Source of the DNA: Pseudovirgaria hyperparasitica
Lineage: Eukaryota
Direction: 5' to 3' (one strand)
Assembly (NCBI GenBank): GCA_010093815.1
Contig: ML996569.1
DNA: 64,000 bases
Part shown: in pieces, positions 1 through 19,500 of the stretch
Layout: each line of letters opens with the position of its first letter
Numbering within the stretch: the stretch's first letter is position 1
Notes under the pieces: model-generated
Seen by the model: only the letters and a program-made list of their open reading frames with translations
Databases searched by the model: none
Told to the model about the DNA's origin: nothing
Translations under genes and position numbers: made by a program

Positions 1-1712
1 AGAAGAATTTCACGAGCATTAAGGGAATGGCCCTACTAGTACGCTAGAAAGCGTAGATAGATAATATGGCTGTTCCGTATAAAGTCTACTACAAGCATTA
101 CTAAGATATAGCTAGAAAGAATGATATACTCGTTAGCGTGTCCTACTTAAACCTAGTAGCGAGACTTAAAATAGTATATAAGTTTAGAGATAACGTAGGG
201 GCCCTTAAAGTTTATAAGGACCGCTATACCTAGTTCGCGAAGTACGCGCGGCCACCTCATCTAATAGAGGCATTAGGTATCTATTATTACTAGGCCCTAG
301 AGACCCCGAAGTAAGTTATTAATATTAAAACCATCCTTACTAGTATCGCATTTATGATTTAGAAGGAGGACGGTAGGATAGGTAGATAACTCTTCGACGA
401 GTAGGAACGTACCGGAAGTATTAATATTAAAGGGCTCTTTGAGCTACTTAAAAAGACGACCTCTATACTTAATAAGAGTATTCTAGAACTCGCGAGGGAT
501 GAATTTAATATATATAAGTACTACTAGCGCATGTTTAATAAGAAATTAAACTACGGCTAGCTACGAACTATATACCACTCCTATATCTAATAGTTTATTA
601 GGTAATGCCTACTTTACTAGCTTACCTATATCGCTCTTCGGCCCGATCTTAACTACTATCTAATCTTATACCCGTACTATGCGAAGTCCTAGGATAGGGG
701 CGATAAGACGGGTTTTAAGTATCTCGATAACGCTATTAATCGAATCCTCGATCCTAGCGATAGACACGGGTTTAATATAATCTAGGGGAGTATTAGTCTC
801 GACGACGAACGAAGTAACGACTGCACTATAATTATTCCCCGCTCCTATAAGTTCTTAAATAAATGGTGGTCGAAGGCTAAGCTCCGCGAGGGGGTTAATC
901 GAAACGGTATAATTATAGCTATTAACGATAAGATCTATAATGCGGACGATAAGAAACGATTTAGTCCCTTCGTCCCGGTCCCCTACTAGTCCCTTAAAGT
1001 ACGCATCTCTAGCCTACTAATAATACACGGCGCCTAGGGTCCCGTAAAGGGTGGAAGACGTATAATGCTTCCATGGTATATCGCGATTAGCCCTAATTAT
1101 ATAATAATGGAAGTGCCTAAAATAGGTACATAGGAATAACTCGTAGTAGCTCATAGAAATTTAACTCTAGGACCCACGTCTCTATCGGGATTTTCTAATA
1201 AATACGGCGCGATTCCTTTTACCTTCCTAGCCGTAGTTTAACTCCCGAGTTTTAACGCCGTTAGTAACGCATTAGTCGGCCGTAAAAGATAGGATAGCTA
1301 GGAGGTAAAAGAAGAGGTAGCTGCGTGGCTTAACGCAAGTCCTTAATAACTTAAAGCTAAGGTAGACGCCTGGTTTAAGGAGGGCTCGAGGGTATTCGTG
1401 GAGACCTTTAAGAAAATAGTAAGGTAGAAAAGGCTAGTCTATGGGGATAGGTTATTCTAGAAGGAATTTAACGAGGCGCGCGCCGCTAAGCGGCTAATTA
1501 ATTTTAAGAAATTTAAGTCTAACGCGGGCCTAGATAACGTCGAAGAGAACTTCTATAGATAGGAGAGGCCTAACGAACTATCCGACGAGGAGGAATCTAA
1601 CCTCTCTAAGATAAGCGACACGATTCTTTAGGGGCTGGCTCGCGACCTCGAGTACTAAGATTAGGCGCCTAAAAACCTACCTAATTATTAGTTAAGGGCT
1701 GCCCTTAACTAA
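1..1712 (+). pseudogene. RIP-degraded ORF resembling a 2OG-Fe(II)/PhyH-like dioxygenase (5' end may lie outside the window)
   Basis: One frame, after reverting RIP changes, reads NYGWLRTMYHS..YPYYAKSQDRGDKTGFK[H]LD (HxD at 720-728), IQGS[V]SLDDE and HGAQGP.KGGRR.MLPW (His 1026, Arg 1056-1061). This fits an HxD...H triad plus a 2OG-binding Arg. Confidence 0.55.
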
Positions 1713-1715
1713 TAA
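1685..1715. repeat. 31-bp palindrome, copy 1 (TTATTAGTTAAGGGC-T-GCCCTTAACTAATAA)
   Basis: Perfect 15-bp arms around a 1-nt centre, seen directly in the sequence. Confidence 0.95.
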
Positions 1716-3040
1716 TTCGGGCTAAGGTTTACCCGCGCTAAGAGGTTTACTAGGGGCGTATTTTATCGTATTAAGGTCTTTCTTTTAGGCGTTCTTTATA
1801 CGGTTTCTTACACGGTTACTATACTACTAAGGGTAGTAGTTCTATGGGCCGGGGAGGTATATATAGAAGGCCGCTCCTACAGCCCTATATATATGTATCC
1901 CTAGCTCGATTATATGGCTTTATTATATATTTAAGGAGGGCGTTTTCCTTGGTCATTCTACTTGGCGCGCTTCCCCTATTACTAATATTCGACTATTCGA
2001 CCTTTTCTTACGTTCATGGGCCTCTATAGGTATTGATTATTAGGCTTAGCTATTAAAGAATTGATTAAGAGTATTATATAGACCCGTCCTATTATAAAAG
2101 AGAACTAATAAGAAGTCGTGCGTTCAAAGAGAACTTATAATACCTAGGAGAGATACTTGTGAGTTCGTCGCGACTACTATACTAGGAATACAGCCATTTA
2201 TAAAAGGGACACACGTAGCGATAGCTTACTACAATAGTTAAGATAGTCTAACTAGAACCGAGAAGGTTAACACGATCCACTATAGGGATAAGTAACACTA
2301 TATTAAATAATAGGGATCCTCTATAATTAGTATTAATCCTAGCCGTTTCTAACTAAGAAGTAGAAATATTAGACCGAATCACGGAGCTTTTAGATAAAGA
2401 AATGGTAGATACGCCGAGTAACTTCTAATAATATAAAGCCGGACAACGAGTCGTGGCGGAGCCACGCGAGGTATTATAATAAACTATCGCCGAACTTTAG
2501 GAATACGTTACGAATTAGGCTTAAGAGATTCAAACCCTTAAAGAATAGATAGAACGCGCGAAACTCCTCGTAAAGAGACGAGAACTTAAGGAGTCTCTTA
2601 AAGAACTACGCTAAACGATAGTAGGTGGACGACTTCCTACACCAATTCAGGCGGAATTAGTTTACCTACCATTAGAGTTACGACAATCTACCGTACACCT
2701 AGCCGCTTCATTACCGATTTACCCTACTCCTTCCCTAGGTATACCAAAATCTAAAGACCCGACTATATTTATAGGGAAGAACTAAAAGAAGTAGAAAGAC
2801 TAGAAGAGAGACTACGAAAAGTACTTCCTTAATAACCCTCTACTCTTTTCTACTAAAGTATAACGCATTTCGTTCGGAGAACGATACCTAGGCTTATAAT
2901 CCCGCGATTAATAGGATAGATAGAAGGAAGTGCAGCTACTATCTACGATAACCTAGGAACATTTAGCTATATTTATACTAAACACCCTCGGAACGGATAG
3001 AGAACATGAAAGAAAGGCACTATCTAAGTTAAGAAGCGTG

Positions 3041-3970
3041 GTATAACGACCGAACTAGACACCTACTTAACTACTATAATACCTCTAAAACCTATAGAAT
3101 AATATCCCTACGCTATAGAAAAATATTCGTATATTCTAGTTTCGCGAAGTACTACTTCCGTTAATCTATAAAAGACTAGAAATAGTATTATTAAGTTTTA
3201 ACTATCTATATAAATTAGAGGAGAAAGCTAATAAACACTACCGCATCCTTAAGGAACACGGCTCTCTAGGTAAAACCGACGAACCCTATACGGGTTAGAA
3301 ACGAGGTCGATCGAATACGTTCGATTAAGAGTAACCTTACCGCGATTAGCGCTAGAAGAGTATAAATTAGGGTAGAAACGCGTTAAGAGGATACTAAAAT
3401 AATTAAGGCGGTGCTTCTTAACACGGAAAAGGATAAGGTATAGGCTTAAATATAACGCCTATCGTAAAATAGTAGGATTATAGCGCACTTCGTTACTATA
3501 NNNNNNNNNNGTATAACGACCGAACTAGACACCTACTTAACTACTATAATACCTCTAAAACCTATAGAATAATATCCCTACGCTATAGAAAAATATTCGT
3601 ATATTCTAGTTTCGCGAAGTACTACTTCCGTTAATCTATAAAAGACTAGAAATAGTATTATTAAGTTTTAACTATCTATATAAATTAGAGGAGAAAGCTA
3701 ATAAACACTACCGCATCCTTAAGGAACACGGCTCTCTAGGTAAAACCGACGAACCCTATACGGGTTAGAAACGAGGTCGATCGAATACGTTCGATTAAGA
3801 GTAACCTTACCGCGATTAGCGCTAGAAGAGTATAAATTAGGGTAGAAACGCGTTAAGAGGATACTAAAATAATTAAGGCGGTGCTTCTTAACACGGAAAA
3901 GGATAAGGTATAGGCTTAAATATAACGCCTATCGTAAAATAGTAGGATTATAGCGCACTTCGTTACTATA
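3041..3970. other. Assembly gap (N x10 at 3501-3510) flanked by an apparently identical 460-bp duplication (3041-3500 = 3511-3970)
   Basis: Both copies start gtataacgaccgaac and end cgttactata and abut the N run. This is typical of an unmerged contig overlap. Confidence 0.9.
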
Positions 3971-5452
3971 AGTATAGAGAAATAGAATATATTTCGCCTA
4001 ACTATAAGAATCTAAAAAAAGAATAGGCTAGTACACGAGACCTAACCGCGTTCTTAGCTAAATTATATATACTTAGGAGGAGCCGTAGCGCCTTCCGGCG
4101 AGTAAAGATCTAATATTACTAAAAGTATCGTTATCTATAGTAAATGGTAATAAAACTATATAGGCCCTCGTGGACACTAGTATAGAAGATAACTATATTT
4201 CGTTAATTCTCGTAAAGGAGTATAGATTATCGTACGATCTTAGTAAAGTTGGCCGAACTATCGTAGTTAATAGATATAAAGTTAGAACTTTAGATAAAGC
4301 TATAACGAATTACGAAGTTCATGACTCGAAGATAATAAAATAGTAGATATCTAATAAATTCATCGTGGCTAATATTAGCTAATAGAATATAATTCTAGGA
4401 ATACCTTAGCTTAGACGCCTAAACCCTATCCTCGATTTTTAGAAGGAGATATTAACGTTCTAACGACACCGTGGTAAATTATACTAGTAAGTTGTAACTA
4501 TTAGTAAGGAGGCATAGAACCTCGCTATGCGGACCTAATCGTCGCTAATCTATCTTACGTCCTTATTAATCGTCGATAAAGACGAGGACGATAGTAATAA
4601 TCGGGGCAAAGACACGCTACCTAACGTATATTCGTAGTATACGGATATGTTTTCGGTAGGAGATACGTTACTTCTCTCTAATCACGGGCCGTATAAGCTA
4701 AAGATTAAGCTCGAAGAGGGAGTAGACGTCCCTTATAGCCTACTTTACCTACTTTCGAGACTAGAACTCGAAGTTCTTTATAAATATATTAAAGAATACC
4801 TTAAAAGAGACTAGATACGTTATAGTATATTATCGGCCGGCGTACCTATTCTCTTCGTGAAGAAGAAAGATAGAAGTTTATATCTATACGTCGACTATTA
4901 GATACTAAATGCGGTAACTAAGAAGAATCATTACCTATTACCGCTAGTTAGTAAATCTTTAGACTAATTAACGAAGGTAAAGTACTTTACGAAGCTAGAT
5001 TTACAAGATATATATTACCGGCTTCGAATTCATCACGGAGATGAGTAGAAAACCGCATTTCGGACTAGATATAGTTATTTTAAGTATACTATTATGCCAT
5101 TTAGGCTAACAAATACGCTAGGAGTATTTTAAGGATACATTAATACTACACTCGTAGGATTACTTAACGTGATTTACGTAGTTTATCTCGATAATATACT
5201 AATTTACTCCGATAATAATAATAATAATAATATTGTATAACTAGGTAGAGTAGTACTCTACAGGCCTATGCCTCCTCTAGTCTAAGCCACTATGTAAGAA
5301 GAAACCCCATAGGGAAAAACTTCCTTGTATCTATAACTACATCTCGTTAAACCTCTATTTCGTCTTAAGTATATAGCTATAGGGTACGCCTATTAGCCTA
5401 TAGCCTATATTACTATTATTTTACCCTTAGGTAGCACGTGTAGGTGCGGAGG

Positions 5453-5483
5453 TTATTAGTTAAGGGCTGCCCTTAACTAATAA
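5453..5483. repeat. 31-bp palindrome, copy 2 (at the LINE ORF2 3' end)
   Basis: Identical to copy 1. Confidence 0.95.
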
Positions 5484-8400
5484 TCGGGGTTCTCCCAGGG
5501 TTCTTCCGGTATATATCGGGTTACTACCGGCGTATACCGGGTCTCTTCTAGTATATATTTCCGGGTCTACTAGTACTAGAGGAGTAGTAGATATATAAGT
5601 ATCTATCGGGAGACATTCTTAGAGTACTTATTAAGCTATTATACGATATCTAAAGTCTTCGTAACGTGGATAAGCTATTACCGTTATATATAGAGGTTAG
5701 GGTATATAGCTAGATAGTAGCATATTATACCTCTCCGGCCGCACGTCTTATACTATAGGGAGGTGTCGGGAACGCCTCTCTTATAGATATAGTATAGGAG
5801 TCCTATAGCGCCCGTTCGGGCTTGGATAAGTATAGATGCTTAGGCTTTCGTTAGCCCTTTATATATCTATTTACTCGGTTCCTTCTATAGCCCTCGAATC
5901 CACTCTAGGTATCTATCCTACTAGGAGGTCTAGTAGGTATAGAGTGCCTCTTTCTACTTATCTTAAGTCCACGACCGTATGTTTTTTATAAGTTCTTAAA
6001 GGCTCTACCGGTCTAGAAGAGCGTCCGGGTTGTCTCGGACTTCTTATACTACTTAGCTAGAGTCGGCTTCTATTAAGCACCTATACCGTATTTAATTCCG
6101 GCCTATATATAGGAGTGCGCGGTAATATATACTAATTCGTACACGTAGCGCGGCGAAAGTATATTCTACGTTTCCTATACGTTCCTATGCTTATTATTTA
6201 GTGAAGTATACTACCCTCTATATCTAGTAGAAGTTATATATACTTATAACGTCTATCTCGCGTCGTAGTAGTACCGTGTTAGTAGCTTTATATACGCCTA
6301 ATATAAGACGGAGTATACGGTTCTATATGGATTCGAGCTTCATTCGCCTAGTCTATATAAGGGCCGTATACTAGTACTCGTGTCCGTACGTGAAGGCGGG
6401 TCGTGCTATAGATATATATAGCTAGCGTGCCTTATCCCGGGCGGTTCCCTATATAGAGGCTGTAATCCGTTGTATGGCGGCTTCTATCTAGAGGGCTCTA
6501 GAGACGGTATATACTACTTATAGTCCCTATTTAAGCTTACTATCTAGTATAACTCCGAGCGCGCGTATGCTTTATACTAGTAGTTCGTTAAATGCGTCGA
6601 TTCGGGGGCGTTATTCGCCTTCCCTAGTTACCTATTTCCCTTAACGATTAATGAAGTGTATAAGCTAGTATTTCTCTAGGGCGAACTTTACTCCGTGGCG
6701 TTTTACCTACTAGAGGTACCTCTTATGGTCCTGTTCTAGTCGTCTACACGTTCGGTTAGTATTATTATTAATAGCTAGAAGGTATATATTATTAGCGTAT
6801 CCGACTACCTCTATATACTTTATTCCTTAAAGAAGGTCTACCGTAAAGAAGAGAAATAGGATTAGAGAGATAGTGCTCCCTTATAGGATGCCGTATACCG
6901 TCTCTTTATATTCGCTCTAGTACCTAGGGATATATATCTAAGTTGTTCTTCCTATAAGGAATAACTATATAAAGCGTGTAATCCATTCTAGTATTCGTCT
7001 TATCCGGAGGTTATAAATAAGTCTTATATAGTTTACCTTGTTAAACGCTCCGGCTATATCGAGGGAGAGGAGCGATACTACCCGTCCCTATTTCTATACG
7101 GCCTAGACGACTTCGATAATATATTAGATAGCTATTATTAGAGAGCTATCTATCTTTGCCTTCTAGTTCGGAGGGAGGAGATTATATTTCTATACCATAG
7201 TACTTATCTTCTTCGCTATCGTAGCCTCTAGTATCTTACCTAGGTAGAAGAGAAGGGCGATTAGTCTCTATCCCTTTAGGGAGTTAGGGCTCTTTCCTAG
7301 TTTCGGGAGTATAATAGTATAGGCGACTCGGAAGCTCTAGGGGTGGTACCCCTACGTGACGTATACTTAGAATATACGAGTAATAAGCGGTAGGGTCGCT
7401 TTTATAGTACTTTTTAGGTATTAATTTAGAATTCCATCTGGTCTAGGTGCTTTATCATTTAGGAGTATCTTAATAATATTAAGTATATCCTCCTCCGTAA
7501 CTTCTTTAGGGATATCTACCGCGTGTAGATATTCGGCGCCGTGAATATCTAATAGGTCTACTAGTTCTAGGAGAGGGAACATGGCCTCCCGTAGGGCCTT
7601 AGTTTTCTTAAGGCTTATGGAGTATATTCTTCCCTAATGTATTAGGGGAGGTATAAGTAGCGGGGGTGTCGGAGTGTCTACGCCCTTAGCCTATTTCGCT
7701 ATACGCTATAGCCCTATTACGTATCGTGTCTATTAACTAGTAATTATACGCTACTATTTACGCCTTTCGTTATAGAGGACTTTATTACGTTATCGTATTG
7801 CTTCCTTCTATTCTTTCTACGACTCGGGTATTCTCGTATAGTATACGCGTGTATATAGCCTTTAGGTGTCTTATCTACTTTCCCGTACTTAAGGAATCCC
7901 CTTTGCTTCCGGGGGCCGGTATATTTAGTATAGTATATGTTTATTTCTCGCATTCTAATATATTTATAGGAGTGTCTATACGGCCTGGTCTATGGCTAGG
8001 TCGTTAGATACATCGACTATAGAGGGATCTAGGATCGCCGATTCCAGGTCCTTCAGGTACTTTTCCTAGTCGGTGTCCTTCTATATCTATCGTCCCCGTT
8101 ATTTATTCGGGGTATGCATGTTTATTATAGTTTCCATGCATTCGTGGTTAGAATCCGTCTATACCTAGCCTAGGCGGTAGTATTAGATCCGGTAACTAAT
8201 ATACTCCGTAGCGAAGGTAAGGTTAAGCGTAGACCTATCTTTATTCTATTTATATTTTTTCTATATAACTTATCCCATAGGTGTAAGTAGATATAGGAAG
8301 TCGTGGTAGCGGGTGCGTAGTTCCCTTACTCTAAGTTCTTCCCTAACTACGGCTAGGCCTCTCTACTATTAGTAGTAGAGGTTAAAGTCTCCTAGAAGGA

Positions 8401-10229
8401 TGTGTTACCCTAGTTCCGTAGTACCCTCGAGTATCTTATCTAGTATAAGTACACGTTATTAGTTATATATATTATATATATATAGGGGGCCTATATCTAT
8501 TTATAGGTGTAGTATTATTCTAAGGTTATCGCGCTCGGTATATAACTATAATAAGAGTAGTATTAACCTATGAATGTGGAAGAGGACTCATCTTTCTAGT
8601 CCTAGAGGGTGTATAGTATAGTATCCGGGGTATATAGTTGGTTTGCTCGTCTAGTAGTATTTATAGGGTTCCTAGATAGTAAGTATTATAGCCCCGGTCT
8701 CTTCGAGGAGCGTCACCTAGTTCTCTCTTTTATATTATATGTTTACCTATATAATTCGGAGTATATTCTAGTCCCTTATTAGGTACTAGAGAGTATATAT
8801 ACCTATATACTTATTTCTCGGAGGCGCGACTATCCTCGCGCGGTAGCGGCTTTAACTATACCTTTTAGTTATCCTATCGTCTTCGGGATAGTCTACTATC
8901 CCGCCTAACTATCTTCCGGAGGGGAGGTTAGGGGTGTTATAAAGGAAGGGCTCGTGGTAGGTGTTATATTCTATAACTATCTCGCGCCTCTCGCTTTTAT
9001 CATATAAATGTATTCTATAACCTATTTACGTTTTATACACGTTAACGACTACGATAGGTGTTTCCTATCGTAGTTTAAATACTATACTATGTCCCTATTT
9101 CTTAGTCCGTCTCCTCACGGTTCATGAGAGTACTCCTAGGTAGCGTGGTCCCCACGGTACTATCCGCACTTAGTCTTCTATAAGCACCTTTATATAGTAT
9201 ATCTATACCCTTAATAGTTAAAGTACTATGTTATTACCTATACTCTATCCTATGGCTCGGCTATAAGGAGCTCTCCTTCTATTAGGAATCCCTTCTATAT
9301 AATACGTTATATGAGGGCGGGGTCTCGGAGCTCTATATTTATAGTAGAGTGTTTTTTCGCCGTCGTCTTAATCGCCTATGGGTTCTTCTACCACGCTTTC
9401 ACGATCTTAATCCCTAGGTATTTTCGCGTGTTGGATTATTCTATGCGCGTAATATCCTCCGCTCTAATAGCCTGTCCCCGCACGGGTACTACGTGTACTA
9501 TAATCGGGTATATAGCTACCCTAATGGACGCGCTAGGGAAGATACTACCTATCGCGTTCGGATCTCGCGAGATGTTTTACTACGTAGTATTCGTTATAGT
9601 AGTAAGTACTACCCTATCTAGCGTAACTTTAGTAGCCACGACGCTCGACTATATTCCTTTCTATTTATTAATCTTATTTATAATTTCCTTTGGGGATGCC
9701 TATTAGACCTACGCTAGTATGTCCTTATCCTAGATTACGATACGTATACTACATGCTCTATCTATGGTTCTAGTGGTCCTTAGTACGGTAGCTCCGGGTG
9801 TTACTATAATCTAAGCCCACGTGTTAGGGCGCTTACCTTAGGATAGCTCTTCCTAGATTCTCCGTAGGCTAGCTTCTATTCGGTCGAGCCTACTACTAGG
9901 TTCCTCTCGTAGCGACTTTCTTTCTTTCTCTATAATTCCTCTTAGGTTCTAGATAAGGTCCCGGAATATATAAAGGAGGGTCTTCTTTCCCTCCTCGGCG
10001 TCCCTCTCTATACGTATTACCTAGTATTTAATTTTATCTAGAAGGGTCTCCCCTCTCGGGGTCCCCTTAGTCTAGGTTATCTATGGCGCTTCGTACCCTT
10101 AGTTAGTTCCTATATTTTAGATAGGTGTCTAGCTATCTATATTAATATCGCTATATAGCCGTTTCTACCGTACTAGTGGGGGTATATCCGGCGTATACCG
10201 GGGTATTATAATGCCTAAGGCCGCCATGG

Positions 10230-10260
10230 TTATTAGTTAAGGGTAGCCCTTAACTAATAA
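10230..10260. repeat. 31-bp palindrome, copy 3 (2 nt upstream of the LINE ORF1 ATG)
   Basis: Same arms. The centre GGGTAGCCC is the opposite orientation (GGGCAGCCC) with one RIP-type C>T change. Confidence 0.93.
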
Positions 10261-13200
10261 AAGGGGGTTAGCGTGTCGGCGTTTATTAGATATAGTCTAT
10301 GCTCGTGTTATCGAAGAGTCTTTAAGCGTATATATATAGTATCTCTACACGTTAGTATCGTCGCGTATTATACGCTATACGTACGTACATATGTCGGAGG
10401 TTATTATACTCGGTATACTCTATCGTTTAATGTATGTAAATCGCTATTTTGCCCCGAATTAACTAGTTTAGTCCGTTAGGGTGTGAGAAGTTTTTCTACT
10501 CCGATAGTATATAGAATTATAAAGAACACGTGAAATCGGTGCTAAATCGTCTAAGGTAGTATAAACTCTACGTAAAATTATCTAAATGCGAGTTTCACTA
10601 ATAAGAAGTTAGGTTTCTTGGCTTTATTATAACACATAGCGGCCTAAAAATAGAGCCGGAGCGTGTAAAGACTATTATGGAATAGCTAGAACCTACTACT
10701 ATACGTTAAATTAGAACATTCATAGGTTTCGTAAACTATTATCGTAAATTCATTATAGGCTTCTTACGAATTACGGCGCCGCTTAATAAACTCATAGAGA
10801 ATGGCGGTAAAATCCCTATAGGTAGGCGAGTATAGCGTAAAGCTAAGTCGGTCGAGATATAGTTAACGCCGGAAGCGCGAGATACGTTCCGATCGTTAAA
10901 GAATTACTTTATAACTACGCCGATTCTTAGGCATTTTAATTCTAAGAAGTATATTTAGGTCGAAACTAACGCGTTAGAATTCGTAATTACTAGAATCATT
11001 AGTTAACCGCATAAAGATGCGAAAGACAAGGTATAATAGTACCCGGTCGCCTTCTTTTCCCGTAAAATGGCGGATATAGAGACGCGTTATAATACGCACG
11101 ACTAGGAACTACTTATAATTATCGAGAGTTTTAAGTAATAGCGATATTATTTAGAAGGCTCCGTATATTAGATCGAATTATTATTAGATTACGTAAATCT
11201 ACGTTACTTTATGTTAACCAAGGTCCTTAATCGCCGATAAGTACGTTAGGCTAAGTAGATATTAATATTTAACTTTAAAATCTTATATAAAGCTAGAAGA
11301 GAGAATAAAGCTAATCCTCTATCGCGGCGTAAAGATTATAAGAAATCATCATAGAATAACATAGATAGTCAGTATAAGTTAGACTATACTATACTTTAGA
11401 TACTATAAGACTAGTTATCTAATAGAATACTAGAAGCTAGGATACTTTCGGCGATTCTCCGCGGGAATTAGAGCGGGTATTAAGTAATCTAAATAAACAT
11501 CTAAGAAACTAAGAAAACCCTTAAAGACTTAATTAAATCTACCTAGAATTCCGATATATTAGTAAAGAAAGTCATAAGTATAAAAGGAAGCGCTATAGAT
11601 CTACTATAGTTATTAAGGTAGGAATCATAATTAGACGCGATCTACTTCTAAGGCCGACTCTACGTGCTAGAAGGCGGCTTATAAATTAATATTTTAAGGA
11701 AATAGCACGATTACGCGTTAGTAGGGCACTTTAGCGTTATAAGGACGGTCGATTTAATCCGAAGGACGTACGACTAGCCGGGTCTTTATAAATATATAAA
11801 AGACTACGTAAAAACGTGTAATGTTTACCAGCATACGAAAGTACATAGACACTTACTATATAGCGAATTAAGGCCATTACCTATGCTAAAGGAGGCATAG
11901 AAGGAATTATCGATGGATTTTATCACAGATCTACCCCTAAGTAAGTATTCTAGGCACATTTATAATAGTTTACTTATAGTTCTAGATAGATTTATAAAGA
12001 TATTATACTATATCCCTATAAGGGAGACAATCTAAGTACCGGATCTTATAGATATACTACTCCGTGACGTAGTCCGGCTCTATAGTATACCGAACGGTAT
12101 AGTTTTAGATAGAGGTCCGTAGATAACGTCTAAATTTTAGAAGGATTTCTACTATATACTAGAAATTAAGCGGAAACTTAGTACTACGTTCTATCTATAA
12201 ATAGATAGATAGACGGAGCGGTAGAATTAGATAGTCGAGGCGTATTTACGTGTATATTATAACTATAAGTAGGATAACTAGATAAGGTTAGTCTATATCG
12301 CGGAATTCGCGTATAATAATAGCCGACATGTATTAACCTATATAAGTCCGTTCGAAGTAAACTTCGGTCGGAACTATAATACGTAGTTCTTAGGGACTTA
12401 GTTTAAAGTAGAACGACCTAACGTTAAAGTAATAGAAATTACTATAGAACTATTCTAAATATAAAGAAGCGTTATAAAGTTACTATAAGATACTACGAAT
12501 TATAGTAAATCGCACTATAATAAGGGTAGAAAACCTATAATCTTTAATATTAGGGATAAAGTTTTACTAAATAGTAAGAATATTCGTAGTATTAGGCTAA
12601 AGAAGAAGCTTAACTATACGATAATAGATCTATATAAGATTACTCGTATAATTAATGACCAGGCGTACGAGTTATAACTCCCTTCTACGTTAAAGATATA
12701 TAATATATTCCATATTATACTTCTCGAGCCATTTCATGCCTTATTATTACCGGATCGTTCTAAATAGATACTATATAAAGTAGTTACGTAAGAAGGTATA
12801 GATATCTACGAAGTTAAGTAGATACTTAGCTAGTAACGCGCCGAAGATAGCACGTAGCTATATAAAATTTATTAGAAAGGATATAATTCTAACAAAGATA
12901 CTTAGGAACCTATAATAAATATTAGTAAAGCAGCGATATTAGTATATAAGTAGCGATTAGTAAAGGAAGCCGCAGAATCGTAGAGAATTATACTAAAGTA
13001 CGGCGATTCGACGTTTTTTAGTATAGTTCGGCGCCGAGGACGGCTGTCTAAAAGGAAGAAGGTAAAAGAGATATAGATCTTTAAAACATTCTAAGGAATT
13101 AAGGAACTTCCTTAGAAAGTTCGAACTTAGAACTTTAAAAAATTTAACTAAAAAAGAGACTTAGAAAAATAATTTACTAAGAAAAATGGATATCGAAAAT

Positions 13201-14898
13201 CGGTGCCGATCGGTATAGATCGGTATAGATTACTAAAGAGATTAAAGAAGTTATTATTAAAGAAAGATAAAATTAAGAAAGCTAGAAGAAAATATAAAGA
13301 TCTATATAGATCTATATAAACTCGCACTAATCTATCTAGAAGAAGTAAGATCGCTTTAAAATTAAAATCGAAAAACTAAAAACGCTAGATAAAAGAGATA
13401 TATTAGTACCGATCGGTGTAGATCTAAACCGATTAAGTCGGAGTAGGAGTAGAAGTACTAATTACCGCGATAGTTATATCTAATTCCTTCCGCTAGTTCT
13501 TATTTAGTATAGTATAGAGCTTTATAATATAAGTCTCTAGCCTTTCGTTCCGACGCTATAAATTCTATATAGCGCGCCTTATAGCTATAAACTCCTCTAT
13601 AGAAATCTATAGAGCGGCGGGACCTAGGACGGAGAGGGACGGACCGGCGTGGGCACGCTAAGAATTATATAAATTAGCGAAAAGATTTAACGATTGGTAT
13701 AGAACCATATACCTTTAGTATAGAAACTTCTAGATTAGAGCTATCTTCCCTAAATTTACGGCTCTTTAGCACGCGCGAGGAAGGAACCTTAGCCTTTTTA
13801 CTAGAACCTTTTCTAGGAATTCTAATATTACTAGTATATAGAAAGAAGTCCGAAGTAGTAGAGATTTTAGCACTATTATAGAGATTAATATATATTAGTA
13901 AGAATCTATAACGATTTAAGAAAAACAATATTACCTAGTAATCGCGGTAATAATAGCTATAGTAGATTCTAATAAATCCTTACGGATCTTATTAGAATCG
14001 TACTTCTAGGCGTAACTCTTACCTTAGGTATATAGCTCGTAGAAAGCCTTCTCTAAGGCGTTACGATCGGTAGTACCACGCTCCTTATTAGTAGAGGTTA
14101 CTAGAGGCCTAGTAGTAATCTATACTAATATAAGTAAATCTACGTAAAGTTCTTCGAACTTAATTAAATACCTATAAGTAATAACGCTTCTTAGTTATAT
14201 AAGTACCGTATATTATAGATTTAGCACCGCCGTGAGTAACGTATAACGGAAAGCGATAACCATAATAATATATAGCTAGATTATTAGAGCCCGGCCTAGG
14301 TCGGGGTAGATTAATGGCTTTCGATATATCGGTAATGTATATAAGATAGAGATTATTCGAAGGCGTCTATTTCCGTGCCGATTACTTTAGAGTATCGAGA
14401 TTTCGGGAAACTATATTATAATTATTATTAATTTATGCGGATTATTACGAATTATATTATTACTAGCTAAGAATGGCACGAAAATTAGTAAATTACGTAA
14501 ATCGTACTAAATTATAGTAAATCTATATAAATCTATGTCTATAAGGATCGGGTAATATACCTAATAATCTAAAAAACTCTATAAAGAGTTAAGAAGTTTT
14601 TTAAAGAAAGGAATATTTCTAAGAAAAGATTTTAATATAGGTAGCACCCGGGCTTACCTAATTACATTACGTGATACGCTAGGCCTAATTAGGTAATCTC
14701 ACCTATATAAGAAATTAAGATGGATAAAATCTAGTTTATTAGGAAAACGCTTATGTAAATCTTAGATCGGCGAATATTAGTAAGTATCTAAGACGAAGTG
14801 TAGAGAACGACTAAGGTCTTACGAGACTTAGGATAGGGATATAGAGATAGGTAATAATCTAGGTTACTAAGGGTAGCTTCCTAGAGGGAAGGGATAAT

Positions 14899-15126
14899 TA
14901 TTAGGACTTAGCCTTAGGTAGGACCCGACCTATATATACCTTAGCTAATAGAGTTAGGAGGTAACGTGAAGGGCGGTAAATAGTTACATACTAGATAGAT
15001 TAGCGTCCCTTTATATATATACTCTCGGATTCCTACCGAAAGGGTTCGGTAGTAATTCGTTCTATGATAGAATACACCCCATTGTTCTATCTAACTATAC
15101 TACTATTCAATAACCCTATTCTTACA
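14899..15126 (+). repeat. Putative 3' LTR of the Gypsy element
   Basis: Preceded by the polypurine tract AGAGGGAAGGGA (14883-14894). It starts TAT (RIPed TGT), ends CTTACA and contains a TATA-like run. No matching 5' copy was recognised. Confidence 0.55.
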
Positions 15127-16525
15127 ATACGTATCCTTAGGGTGTTTAATTTAATATACCATCTAACGTTCAGATGGCGTTAGGTCTAGATAGTTCTATG
15201 CGAACCTAATCTTATTACTATCGTTCGTGAATAGGTGGAAGAATCGGCTATACTAGTAAGCCTATTTATAAAAGCTCCTTCTAGTTTTACCGTCGAAGTA
15301 AGGTAGTTTCTTAGGCTAAGGTAACTAGGATAGTAATAGACTTAGTTAGACTATTTCGGCTTAAGTTAGTCTATATTAGTATAGGTTAGTTACTACTAGT
15401 ACTAAAGCGCGTAGTACGGCTTTAAGTCTAGTAGTTCGTTCTTACGCTTTATTAAGTTCGCGAAGTTACTACTCGAGCTAAGCCTAACGCTATCTCTCCG
15501 TATATAGCTTAGTATATATATTATTATAAGGCGTGGTTAACGTTAGTCGGTTCTAATAAATTAATTCGTTAACGTTAATAGGGTCTAGTCTTATAGTAAG
15601 GATAGGTCTAGTATAGTATAAACTAGACCGCGATAGAGTATAATAGACTCCTTCCTTATTATCTAGGTAATCTTCTATGGTTATACGGAATACCGTACTA
15701 GTTATTAGTACGATAGCCTATAGAGTATACTTATTAGTAGAGGTGGTTATAGGGAGACTATTCTCTTCGTTTAGATTTAGAGAGAGTCTCTTATATAAGG
15801 TAGTACCACGGGTATTATAGCGCGTAGTAGAAGCTATCTCTATAAGCTACCATCGTGCTATATAGAGAGGAATTAAAATATAAAGAGTAAAGACGTAGGA
15901 TAGTAGTCTAATAGTTCATAGAGAGATATAGAAATGTATTTATAGAGTAATCTTACTCTTATATAAGGTTAATTCCTAACGAGTAGGAATCGGTTTATAC
16001 GGTCCACTTATATAGTGACCTCGCTTAACTTAGCTAACTTAATCTAGCTCTAGCTACTACGTGGCTACATGGATTAGAATGGTCTATATAGATCTATTAT
16101 AGTTCCTATTCTAACATATATCTCTAAATCCTTCTATAATCTATTAGACTACTATTCTATATCTATAATCTTTATACTAGAGTTCTAGTATAATATACTA
16201 TAGTATACTTTAATAAGCTTTATAAGAGAATACTCTCTTAAAAATATTATTATTATTTCTTATTTTTAAGAACTTCTCTAGATATAGCTAGATCTAGATT
16301 CTAGTCTACTATATAGATATATCTATCTATAGAATTACTTTCTTACTAATATAGCTTATTATAGTAGATCTTATAGAATAGAAGATACTAAGAGTAAGGT
16401 TTAGAAGTAGTATAGATAATATTAGAAGTAGCGGGACCTTAATAGAGGGTCTAGAATACCTAGATACTATAGAATAGAAGAGGTTTCTCTAATATACCTT
16501 TCTAACTAGCTATTTAACCATGCTA

Positions 16526-19500
16526 TTACTTTACACGCACGAGTCTATAGATAGCGAAGGTCGCGATGATATTAAAAGCCAAATACCCCCAAAGTAATCC
16601 GAAGTTACTCCATTGGCTAGCGTAATCCATCTCTAACGCCTGTAGAAATGAATTGGTGTCGGCAAGCTGGTAGTAAGCGTAGCCGCGCGAGTCGTTCGAG
16701 ATGAGATATCCCCCGTATGTCTTGATGAATGGACTTAGATAATCCGAGCATTCTTGGTTTGAGGGATTAGGGATCTGCAGGACTTCAATTTCGGAGCACT
16801 TCACGGGTTTGAAGGCCATCGAAGACGAATAGATCCCTGAAACGAGATAAGTCAGTGGCGATACGCGGTACATAAACTTCCAAAAGCTTGGCAGGTCTCC
16901 GAATGGCACTAACACCCTATTATCAATGCTAGTTAGCAGTGTAACTTCGGAGCTAAGGATTAATGGGGATAATTACCCGCAAAAGATAAGAATGAGGTAA
17001 AAGAAGAGCTGTGCAAGGTTCACTCCCATCTCAGCGTGCTCGACAGCTGCTATGACAAGGATGGCGAATGTACTAGTGAACAAATAGAACACCCAAACAA
17101 ACAGCATTACGATACCCGCTCTCTCGTGTTGTTCTGCGGCGTCCTCAATACCATTTTGAAAGCCGATCGGGAAGTACCATACAACAAATGCGCCCACAGA
17201 CATGAGAGTTTGCCAGGGTATCTCGACAATAATTTGGGACAAAATAAAAGTAGTCCAGGAGTATGTCTTCGATGGTCCCTCTCGCGCCTCGAACAGAGCT
17301 CTCGATTCAACAAAATGCGGCATAATTTGCTGTATAACTTGACTAAAGCTCATGAAGAAGAGAAACGTTGAGAACATAGAGTTTCGGAGACCTTGGATAC
17401 TTGAGGGGCTCTCCCAGAACGAGAAACCGATGAAGAAAGCCTATAACAGTTAGCATCTAGATAACAAGTATGCTTTTTCACCTACAGTGCCGACGCATAG
17501 CACGAACCGAGACCATATGTAAACAGGGCTGCGCCAGTACTCTTGGAAAGTCCTCATGAGAACATAATATAACTGCGTTTTGAAAGGCGAAGCGTATTCT
17601 GACTGATCTTGAAGCCGCTGCTGGGTCTCTGTACGGAATTCGGTATCAGCGCCACCCGGCTGCGCGCTGATCGTGTCCAGGAAGCGCCGTGTATCGCTAT
17701 ATTCTGCTGATTTCTTCCAGATTTGTGCCCAATTAGGGCTGTCCAGATTCTTCACGGTCGATCCTATTATATCAACCACCCATTCGGCAGGATTCTGATC
17801 GCTTCCACAGCTCAGTGCACCGTGCCGCTCAAAATAACTTGTCATTCTCGCAACTTCACCAAAGTACGCTGTCTCGCCTCCAGCAACAAGAAGCAGGATT
17901 TGGTCGAACTGCTGCAGAATCTGAGCTGATGGCTGATGAACCGTACACATGATTGATTGGCCCTCATGAGCGAGCTTTCGCAACAGTTGGCAGATCGACC
18001 ATGCAGATTGACTATCGAGACCAGACGTTGGTTCATCTATGCACTACTAAGCAATTTGATATGCATCTCCAACTGCGTGACCTTACCAAGAAATAAAAGC
18101 AGTTCGGGCTTCGCTACCATCTCAACGCCTATACTCAGACGTTTTCGTTGCTCAATATTCAGGCCTGGTGACATTTTAGTAACCATGAGATTGACATCCG
18201 AGGACTAAGCTTGCGAAGTCTACCTTGCCCTGGAACGCCAATAACTGCGTGTTGGAATGCTTCCATCTCGAGAATATGGACAATATAGTCAACGTATTCC
18301 ATCTTCTCGGCTTGCGGAGTAATAGCAGACTGCCTCAGCATAGCGCTGAATACTAAAGCTTCTCGTACGGTGCTTGTAGGTTGATGAACATCATCCTGCT
18401 GTACGTACCCAATCTTCCGTTGTGTTGATGTGCTTCGAGGGCTACCATTAACCAATATGTCACCACGTACGTCGCTTGGCGACACTCGATTCGCAAGCAC
18501 GTTCAGCAGCGTCGTCTTACCAGCGCCAGTTGCTCCCATCAATGCTGTGAGACAGCCGGACCGAATGAAGCCGTCAACGCCGTTGATGATCTTCTTGGTG
18601 GTGTTTCGATGATGGACTTCGTAGCAAAGATCTTTCCAGACGAAGGTGGGTCCTGTAGTTTCTTCTGAACTTGGATTGACGCGCCCATGTGACGTGGCTA
18701 CTGGGAGTCGAAGCATCGCGGGTCTTTCCTCATCAGCTCCTCGCGACTTGTAGACCTGATTCCTCTTCTTGAATAGAAGCACTTCGCCCTTGGAGCGTTG
18801 CGCCAGAATCTTCTCTGATGTAAATAGATGAGCCACACAAAATACAAACCCCATGGCAATTATGATACCCAGATTCCTATGATACGTAAGCAATTGAGAA
18901 ATGGACAAGGAATTTACTGACCGCCAAAGATGCGAAGCACGAAAGTCGTAGTTTAGAGCCAAAAAGGAATCACCATCGATCCAGTTCTGACCTGGAACGG
19001 CGCCATTCGTTGCGCATACCCTGTCCAATGGGCTTAGACCCTCGTATGAGGGTCCATAAGGCACAAATCTAGCGCAGTCAAATCGACGCTCAGAGAACTA
19101 GGACTCGTATTAGAATAGCAGGCTTCGGTGCTGGTTGGAACTAACCTCATTTATCATCAGAGCCTCATAGGTATATGACAATGGATTGATGTAGGCTATC
19201 CAGCTTAGCCATGGATGCATGAGCCCGACCGGAATTATGAATCCGGCATAGATAATATAATTGAGGATAAAAATAGCTACGGGAGCCATTGTCTGTTCGA
19301 TAGTACGAGATGAAGAGCCGACCATGCGAAAGAACATAGACATGGTGATGAAGCATGTGAATGAAAAGAGAAACCAGATGAAAAAGGCCTCCGGGGTCCT
19401 TCGGAGATTTGTCATGAAGTAGAGGGCAAGGTTGAAACAGACAGAAGTGAAGACTTTGTTAGGGATATCGCAGATCATCGCCGCTGCCGCTTCGACAAAT

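Follow-up and report, generated by a model that had tools for sequence, protein, structure and literature searches.

A 31-bp palindrome at both coding-region junctions of a RIP-mutated LINE, and behind a dioxygenase-like gene, in Pseudovirgaria hyperparasitica

Results

A 31-bp palindrome occurs three times in a 64,000-nucleotide stretch of the Pseudovirgaria hyperparasitica genome (GenBank assembly GCA_010093815.1, contig ML996569.1; hereafter the window). All three copies lie within the first 16.5 kb, a block of transposons mutated by repeat-induced point mutation (RIP). Two of them belong to one long interspersed nuclear element (LINE), where they occupy mirror positions, 2 nt before the ATG of the presumed first open reading frame (ORF1) and at the end of ORF2, and the remaining one lies behind a dioxygenase-like gene. 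We tentatively prefer to read the palindrome as a LINE element that acts in cis, as a hairpin or as a site bound by protein, at both junctions between untranslated region (UTR) and ORF. This reading is the best supported because the palindrome stands at both junctions, recurs in a further copy of the LINE, has accessory motifs linked to the LINE nearby, and has strong hairpin potential.

Three Copies of One Palindrome

A pattern scan of the window returned exact matches (0 mismatches, centre CTG) at 1685–1715 (copy 1) and 5453–5483 (copy 2), and a match with one mismatch, GGGTAGCCC, at 10230–10260 (copy 3); we treat all three as unstranded. A preliminary description of this DNA had placed the palindrome at these three sites, and the statistics bear it out: the real 64 kb contain three matches with up to 3 mismatches, compared with none in 100 dinucleotide-preserving shuffles of the window. 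The three 31-mers are alike at 30–31 positions and share a perfect 15+1+15 design. A 64-kb scan for further 15-nt half-sites (at most 4 changes and at most 1 transversion, so that RIP-type transitions are tolerated) found none beyond the six known arms.

The copies differ in the orientation of their centres. Copy 1 has CTG on the + strand, and in LINE sense copy 2, at the ORF2-end/3′UTR junction, reads CAG. In copy 3, at the 5′UTR/ORF1 junction, the centre is best read as the inverse of that of copy 2 plus one CpA>TpA change, since a single RIP-type change then suffices, whereas a direct repeat would call for two changes including a transversion; the inversion proposed earlier is thus the reading that needs the fewest changes. 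On this reading the 5′ and 3′ copies were, before RIP, exact reverse complements including the centre base. Compared with shuffled sequences the copies fold into hairpins with z scores of −4.1 to −5.0, and none of 200 shuffles folded as well; in the transcript each copy could form a stem of 14 bp closed by a 3-nt loop. At copy 1 the flanking bases extend the hairpin to 20-nt arms (1680–1699 and 1701–1720). The present sequence holds stop codons in all six frames and AATAA-like words on both strands.

The LINE Carrying Copies 2 and 3

The LINE (5215–10496, minus strand; 5,282 bp) is a RIP-mutated non-LTR (long terminal repeat) retrotransposon. On its sense strand the order is 5′UTR (10261–10496, 236 nt), copy 3, CC, the ATG of the presumed ORF1 (10227–10225), ORF2, copy 2, 3′UTR (5215–5452, 238 nt), and a (TAT)n-like tail, which is (AAT)n on the + strand and hence (ATT/TAT)n at the sense-strand 3′ end. 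These positions agree with the earlier statements that copy 3 sits 2 nt before the ORF1 start and that copies 2 and 3 bracket the LINE coding region. The element is bounded by a 10-bp target-site duplication, TACTCCGATA (5205–5214 and 10497–10506, + strand), and combines this with a simple-repeat tail and no LTRs. Its reverse transcriptase (RT) frame (P0002) matches Pfam RVT_1 over residues 995–1228 (E 6.6e-10; 39.5 bits, cut-off 29.6), and ORF2 aligns with P0004, a 1,303-aa “exonuclease III/ribonuclease HI” protein (BLASTP E 1e-54, 773 columns; 8434–6239 and 5890–5741, minus strand, with the RT at approximately 7279–6578), as for an RT domain of the non-LTR type. The alignment begins at P0004 residue 143, within the zone where relatives carry a PF03372/PF14529 endonuclease; Pfam gives no direct match to an apurinic-type endonuclease on the RIPed LINE copy itself. 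ORF1 is identified by position only, and CCHC-like remnants in it were seen by eye only.

Copy 2 reads ...PDYXLRAALNXX at P0002 residues 1592–1603, in the same frame as RVT_1, so that its placement in frame with ORF2, as first described, holds. The 5′ and 3′UTRs show no similarity in either direction (scores of 75 and 67, with nulls of 70 and 67), and we treat their near-equal lengths as coincidence because LINE 5′ ends are frequently truncated.

Contigs from two sequencing runs of one sample (X1 and X2) were aligned to the window at at least 80% likeness (38,679 and 13,777 contigs, respectively). The runs are probably the assembly's own data and so not independent of it, and the evidence drawn from them (40 of 669 variable places, 12 of 1,025 loose ends, and 16 of approximately 42,760 pieces) shows presence and is not a census. 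Differences between contigs and window are nearly all transitions (605 of 615 places in X1). One X2 contig represents a second LINE copy with the order 3′UTR, palindrome, ORF2 tail and with RIP-type differences in the flanks (joints 5429>1684 and 1717>5544). In another contig a LINE copy has lost the palindrome's right half to a 34-nt deletion (joint 5466>5533). A joint that leaves out the 31 bp and nothing else is not among the 8 listed, a list that is incomplete for X1.

Accessory Motifs and Flanks

A G-run lies 2–3 nt to the right of all three copies on the + strand (TTCGGG, TCGGGG, and AAGGGGG), which in LINE sense is an AACCCC-like box just upstream of the palindrome. Its presence beside every copy gives the unit a direction and places copy 1 in LINE orientation. 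A second LINE-internal repeat, the 15-mer CCGGCGTATACCGGG, has only two exact sites in the 64 kb, both on the + strand and within 45 nt inside the LINE palindromes, whereas none of 100 shuffles gave two. The site at 5527–5541, 44 nt inside copy 2, gives RYTP as part of the ORF2 tail; the other (10188–10202) lies 28 nt inside copy 3 and encodes RYTP at ORF1 codons 10–13. The ORF2 tail also has a degenerate second copy of CCGGCGTATACCGGG that gives RYIP. The tail is built of a tandem unit of approximately 21–42 nt (5499–5580; TRYTPVV/TRYIPEEP), and the second LINE copy in the X2 contig is without the 42-nt unit.

In an ungapped comparison identity stops at the palindrome edges. All 15 pairs of the six flanks were compared by local alignment with transitions down-weighted, using real segments of the RIPed block as the null. 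The best pair, right of copy 1 versus right of copy 2, whose centres have the same orientation, scored 60, a value reached by 1–4 of 150 random RIPed segments and by 8–10 of 200 composition-matched segments; right of copy 1 versus right of copy 3 came next (8–9 of 150), and the flanks of copies 2 and 3 themselves are unlike (51–52 of 150). Among alignments anchored on the palindrome none was better than 16 of 400 random segments. Aligned by eye, the copy 1 flanks could be matched convincingly to the LINE junctions in three mutually exclusive ways, all rejected after comparison with empirical nulls. The preliminary description had named an origin of copy 1 as a LINE fragment with extended flanking homology as what would refute it; in local, anchored, full-length, and BLASTN comparisons such homology did not emerge, the weak signals being mutually inconsistent. 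None of the three copies has a target-site duplication (flanks CCTAA|TTCGG, GGAGG|TCGGG, and CATGG|AAGGG).

The Gene in front of Copy 1

Copy 1 lies at the end of the frame of a RIP-inactivated, multi-copy gene (3–1712, + strand) that extends leftward past the window edge. With stops read through, this frame matches the C-terminal half of proteins of approximately 900 aa (best E 2.5e-78), the homology ending near nt 1475. The family has 644 cluster representatives at E ≤0.001; all those checked are annotated “hypothetical protein”, and one comes from a lichen fungus. A conserved CxC...C..H N-terminal part is also present in the family. In six proteins scanned Pfam gave no domain save one PhyH match below the cut-off, and a family profile found no relative among Protein Data Bank (PDB) sequences. 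An AlphaFold model of the closest relative, P0013 (25-sequence alignment; mean predicted local distance difference test score 75.5), matches DUF1479/YbiU, EctD, proline hydroxylases, and other 2-oxoglutarate (2OG)-Fe(II) oxygenases in Foldseek (E 5e-6 and weaker; TM to target 0.5–0.64; 71 matches at E ≤0.001). Within the 25 sequences His630 and His730 are invariant and Asp632 nearly so, an HxD...H iron triad as expected for the predicted double-stranded beta-helix fold. The label “dioxygenase-like”, given from the reading frame alone, thus fits at the level of the modelled, PhyH-like 2OG-Fe(II) dioxygenase fold. The window copy is dead, as judged by its many stops and by the replacement of the first His of the triad by Tyr (FKYLD), a RIP-type change. 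The gene is multi-copy: at each of eight listed variable places (92–1157), 21–33 distinct X1 contigs (X2: 10–25) align.

Do Both ORFs End in the Palindrome?

Copy 1 is indeed in frame with the homologous part of the dioxygenase-like gene, as had been described; for either ORF an in-frame placement has a one-in-three chance and does not show that the ORF ends there. The further proposal that, after reversal of RIP, both proteins would end in the same PDYQLRAALN-stop is not supported. In the dioxygenase-like frame homology stops near residue 490 of 570. A ...KSFF-like motif occurs in 77 of 150 relatives, with a tail after it of median length 34 aa (at least 84 aa in 7 of the 77), and the window copy has an in-frame stop (1560–1562) exactly 34 aa after the motif. 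Other stops before the palindrome fall at residues 543, 552 (nt 1656–1658), and 554; copy 1 itself contributes those at residues 563 and 570, and from the motif to residue 570 the distance is 84 aa. The final block of the ORF2 alignment reaches residue 1507, and P0004 runs 66 residues further; TAG-TAC-TAG-TAG follows at 55–58 residues (5567–5578), and the palindrome stop at 95. Both frames therefore hold several earlier stops, including where relatives end; these can be RIP products of Gln or Trp codons, so that either ORF end is provisional. A search for a C-terminal YQLRAALN had been suggested as a check. Run for LRAALN on 162 proteins, it found the ending in none of the 150 dioxygenase-like relatives and none of the 9 LINE ORF2 relatives. 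Given this and the earlier stops that fit the ends of relatives, the common C terminus is one DNA sequence read in one frame and not a conserved protein feature.

RIP and the Ancestral Sequence

RIP is strong in the block. The TpA/ApT ratio is 1.65 in 1–16500 versus 0.71 in the remaining window, (CpA+TpG)/(ApC+GpT) is 0.24 versus 1.24, and the density of CpA+TpG falls from 141 to 26 per kb, with 19% of such sites surviving. The GC-richer ancestor reconstructed in the preliminary description implies four CpA/TpG arm sites and one centre site per copy. Mutation of 12 of 12 arm sites has p ~0.085 and survival of two of three centre sites p ~0.09 (independence assumed), and the joint probability of 12 of 12 arm but only 1 of 3 centre sites being mutated is, roughly, <0.01. 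Because this pattern is improbable, that ancestor is doubtful and the AT-rich arms may be original. If they are, the unit would have its six-frame stops by design and could not lie inside an ORF.

Searches Outside the Window

A RIP-tolerant 25-nt pattern found one locus in a metagenome collection, an unrelated prokaryote-like intergenic hairpin between ordinary ORFs. The palindrome had no match in a plasmid collection, so that, as far as this collection goes, an origin from a vector or linker is disfavoured. Rfam gave no match at E ≤1 on 1–17000. No locus for P0004 was found in viral contigs, and none of 639 candidates scored when the ORF2 tail was compared with shorter proteins. Two 12-nt strings from the palindrome do not occur in the open-access papers listed; matches to two de-RIPed 11-nt strings look, by title and abstract, like unrelated mammalian studies. 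No description of a comparable motif in fungal LINEs was found in the open-access literature.

The Gypsy Element and Other Features of the Block

The LINE is inserted in the RT gene of a Gypsy/Ty3 element, which it splits. The left part of pol (3963–5214, + strand), with a Pfam RVT_1 match before 5214, runs up to the RT motif YLDNILIYSD, and the right part (10497–12983, + strand) holds the RT end, RNase H, integrase (zinc domain), and an SH3/chromo-like end (Pfam). LINE-free Gypsy copies exist in the organism, as contigs continue past 10497 uninterrupted (8 reads per run). An LTR pair for the Gypsy element was not found (1716–2400 and 13030–16500), and the element may be truncated or further nested. 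A different, imperfect palindrome of 45 bp (12985–13029, unstranded; 18/22 per arm, 1-nt centre) begins 1–2 nt after the in-frame TAG that ends the Gypsy pol/chromo-like region and lies approximately 20 nt before the purine tract AAAAGGAAGAAGG at 13050. Palindromes as strong as this occur at two places in the block (itself, and copy 1 with its flanks) and in none of 20 shuffles.

A 470-bp exact duplicate lies on either side of a 10-N gap (3501–3510, within 3041–3980) and looks like an unresolved assembly overlap rather than biology. The region 13.1–16.5 kb has no Pfam match. At the edge of the repeat block an inverted repeat (15870–16185; 70-nt arms, 77% complementary, 176 nt apart) lies just before an ABC-transporter-like gene (minus strand, 16526 onward).

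Discussion

We propose that the palindrome is a cis-acting element of the LINE family at both of its untranslated/coding junctions. Each copy in the transcript would fold as its own hairpin; alternatively, the 5′ and 3′ copies might pair over 31 nt and so join the ends of the coding region, or the element might act at the DNA level. The element's own proteins would bind the palindrome, and RNA bound in this way would be marked for reverse transcription or packaging. With its six-frame stops the present sequence also closes any frame entering from outside, on one side 2 nt short of the ORF1 start and on the other at the ORF2 end or beyond it. Copy 1 would derive from another, diverged copy of the LINE, as what is left of its 3′ junction, joined to the dioxygenase-like repeat at the palindrome.

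Several observations weigh against this proposal. Homology between the surroundings of copy 1 and the LINE, weakly hinted at on the right side, is not robust: the anchored right-flank alignment of copies 1 and 2 was equalled by 144 of 400 random segments; over the full 236 nt the pair of copies 1 and 3 stands out under lenient scoring only (2–5 of 150) and nothing does under stricter scoring; BLASTN of 1–2500 against the LINE returned the palindrome only; the LINE proteins have no other match in the window; and sequencing depth, in a rough reading with 357-nt bins, puts 1716–1785 with the lower-depth dioxygenase-like repeat and not with the LINE. The presumed ORF1, whose start the 5′ copy precedes, has no Pfam match, and none of 1,829 candidate relatives scored. 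A stable hairpin 2 nt before the AUG should hinder scanning ribosomes, and the 3′ hairpin lies 238 nt from the LINE 3′ end, unlike the hairpins of UnaL2-type LINEs at the terminal tail. All the evidence on the palindrome comes from RIPed copies of one genome.

The palindrome may instead belong to the LINE only, copy 1 marking a rearrangement or joining point that has no function behind the dioxygenase-like gene; we regard this as unlikely. The joining could have come about by hairpin-mediated breakage, by snap-back or template switching during reverse transcription, or by a wrong k-mer path of the assembler through a 31-bp repeat. Identity does end exactly at the 31-bp unit, Logan contigs, which are built with k = 31, stop at 10259, and the assembly contains an artefact in its 10-N gap with the flanking 470-bp duplicate. 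The sequences on either side of copy 1 are in part inverted repeats of one another (AAACCT...AGGTTT), as after a fold-back event, and the 34-nt deletion of half a palindrome in one LINE copy shows instability. Even a wrong k-mer path, however, needs reads in which 30 nt or more of the palindrome adjoin the dioxygenase-like flank, which makes that adjacency real, and the LINE arrangement at copy 2 is present in a separate contig, albeit from runs probably not independent of the assembly. A somewhat smaller chance attaches to a tiny mobile or copy-pasted palindrome, of the repetitive extragenic palindromic (REP) or Correia type or a minimal miniature inverted-repeat transposable element (MITE) of just two inverted ends, inserted twice in the LINE and once behind the dioxygenase-like gene and persisting only where reading frames stay unbroken. 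Mobility would account for the sharp edges of identity, with no statistically robust flank homology in any of the 15 pairs, for the three differing contexts in two repeat families, and for copies that are identical despite heavily mutated surroundings; the near absence of RIP-able sites today also fits an AT-rich native unit. It would leave unexplained why no copy has a target-site duplication and why no joint among the 8 listed bypasses the 31 bp alone, and the metagenome search yielded only the one unrelated prokaryote-like hairpin. The G-run and the 15-mer near both LINE copies suggest instead a sequence intrinsic to the LINE, and a unit of 31 bp is much smaller than known eukaryotic MITEs.

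Two further explanations seem improbable to us. One is a general signal at the ORF ends of several transposon families, acting as a bidirectional hairpin for transcript ending or processing or as a dimeric DNA-binding site. In two families the palindrome follows a probable ORF end or start, three in all, by approximately 0–125 nt; AATAA-like words occur on both of its strands; and the unrelated palindrome of 45 bp, which has a 1-nt centre and comes immediately behind the Gypsy pol frame, hints at a general transposon transcript signal. In the remaining 47 kb, however, no ordinary gene has a copy or a half-site near it, one copy precedes a start codon rather than following a stop, Rfam found nothing in 1–17000, and fungal nuclear genes are not known to have hairpin terminators. 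The other, to which we give a similarly slim chance, is a portable boundary module, in which a six-frame-stop hairpin has been copied between the LINE and the dioxygenase-like repeat, has analogues such as the palindrome at the Gypsy pol end, and in the LINE pairs with its partner copy so that the RNA becomes circular for translation and reverse transcription; among eukaryotes such a module would correspond to the REP/MITE-type palindromes at bacterial gene ends, with a cyclisation signal like that of flaviviruses added. Chance or RIP-driven convergence can be all but dismissed: RIP does reduce sequence complexity, but not one of the 100 shuffles yielded even a single match, and the copies agree at 30–31 positions.

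The proposed LINE element has partial parallels among known systems. R2 has separate 5′ and 3′ protein-binding RNA segments, with differing sequences and complex folds, in an element with a single ORF and a different endonuclease. As in R2, the coding region would have an RNA signal close to either end, and each of the two could take up one protein subunit; here, unlike in R2, both signals are one palindrome. Bicistronic LINEs such as SART1 use stop-start coupling with a nearby RNA structure between ORF1 and ORF2. The palindrome likewise places stops and a hairpin within a few nucleotides of an ORF start, but it precedes ORF1, and no upstream ORF is known. Bacterial REP elements and bacterial interspersed mosaic elements (BIMEs), Correia-type elements, and the GC-rich PstI palindromes of Neurospora mitochondria flank genes, in hundreds of copies beside ordinary genes. 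They resemble the present unit as short palindromes that recur at gene boundaries and sometimes provide stops or hairpins; the unit described here differs in being nuclear, confined to transposon sequence, and without sign of movement.

A functional parallel may lie in the 3′ stem-loops of stringent-type LINEs such as UnaL2 of eel and ZfL2 of zebrafish, which are recognised by the element's own ORF2 protein and shared with partner short interspersed nuclear elements (SINEs) (PMC1636434, PMC4176376). As in those elements, a short hairpin precedes a simple-repeat tail in the 3′ part of the LINE, and such a signal could explain sharing with a non-LINE sequence. In contrast to the hairpins described there, which lie directly upstream of the terminal repeats, the one here is at a distance from the 3′ end, has perfect 15+1+15 symmetry, and recurs at the 5′UTR/ORF1 junction; its recognition by protein is proposed by analogy. 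We therefore suggest that the palindrome may work like a LINE 3′ stem-loop signal, and do not file it as a member of that class.

The finding is real and somewhat unusual, and rests on dead copies in one window; the shared protein end, the more striking proposal of the preliminary description, does not hold. Only for a few animal elements is it known how LINE proteins choose the RNA that encodes them, and we found nothing comparable for fungal LINEs in the open-access literature. Were the palindrome only a LINE motif with one rearranged fragment, it would be a modest annotation detail of a dead, RIPed block. If the unit moves between repeat families, it would represent a kind of mobile sequence that is new to eukaryotes and very small. 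One identical hairpin at either end of the coding region, if true, would offer a simple, testable handle on cis-preference and on 5′–3′ communication in a LINE.

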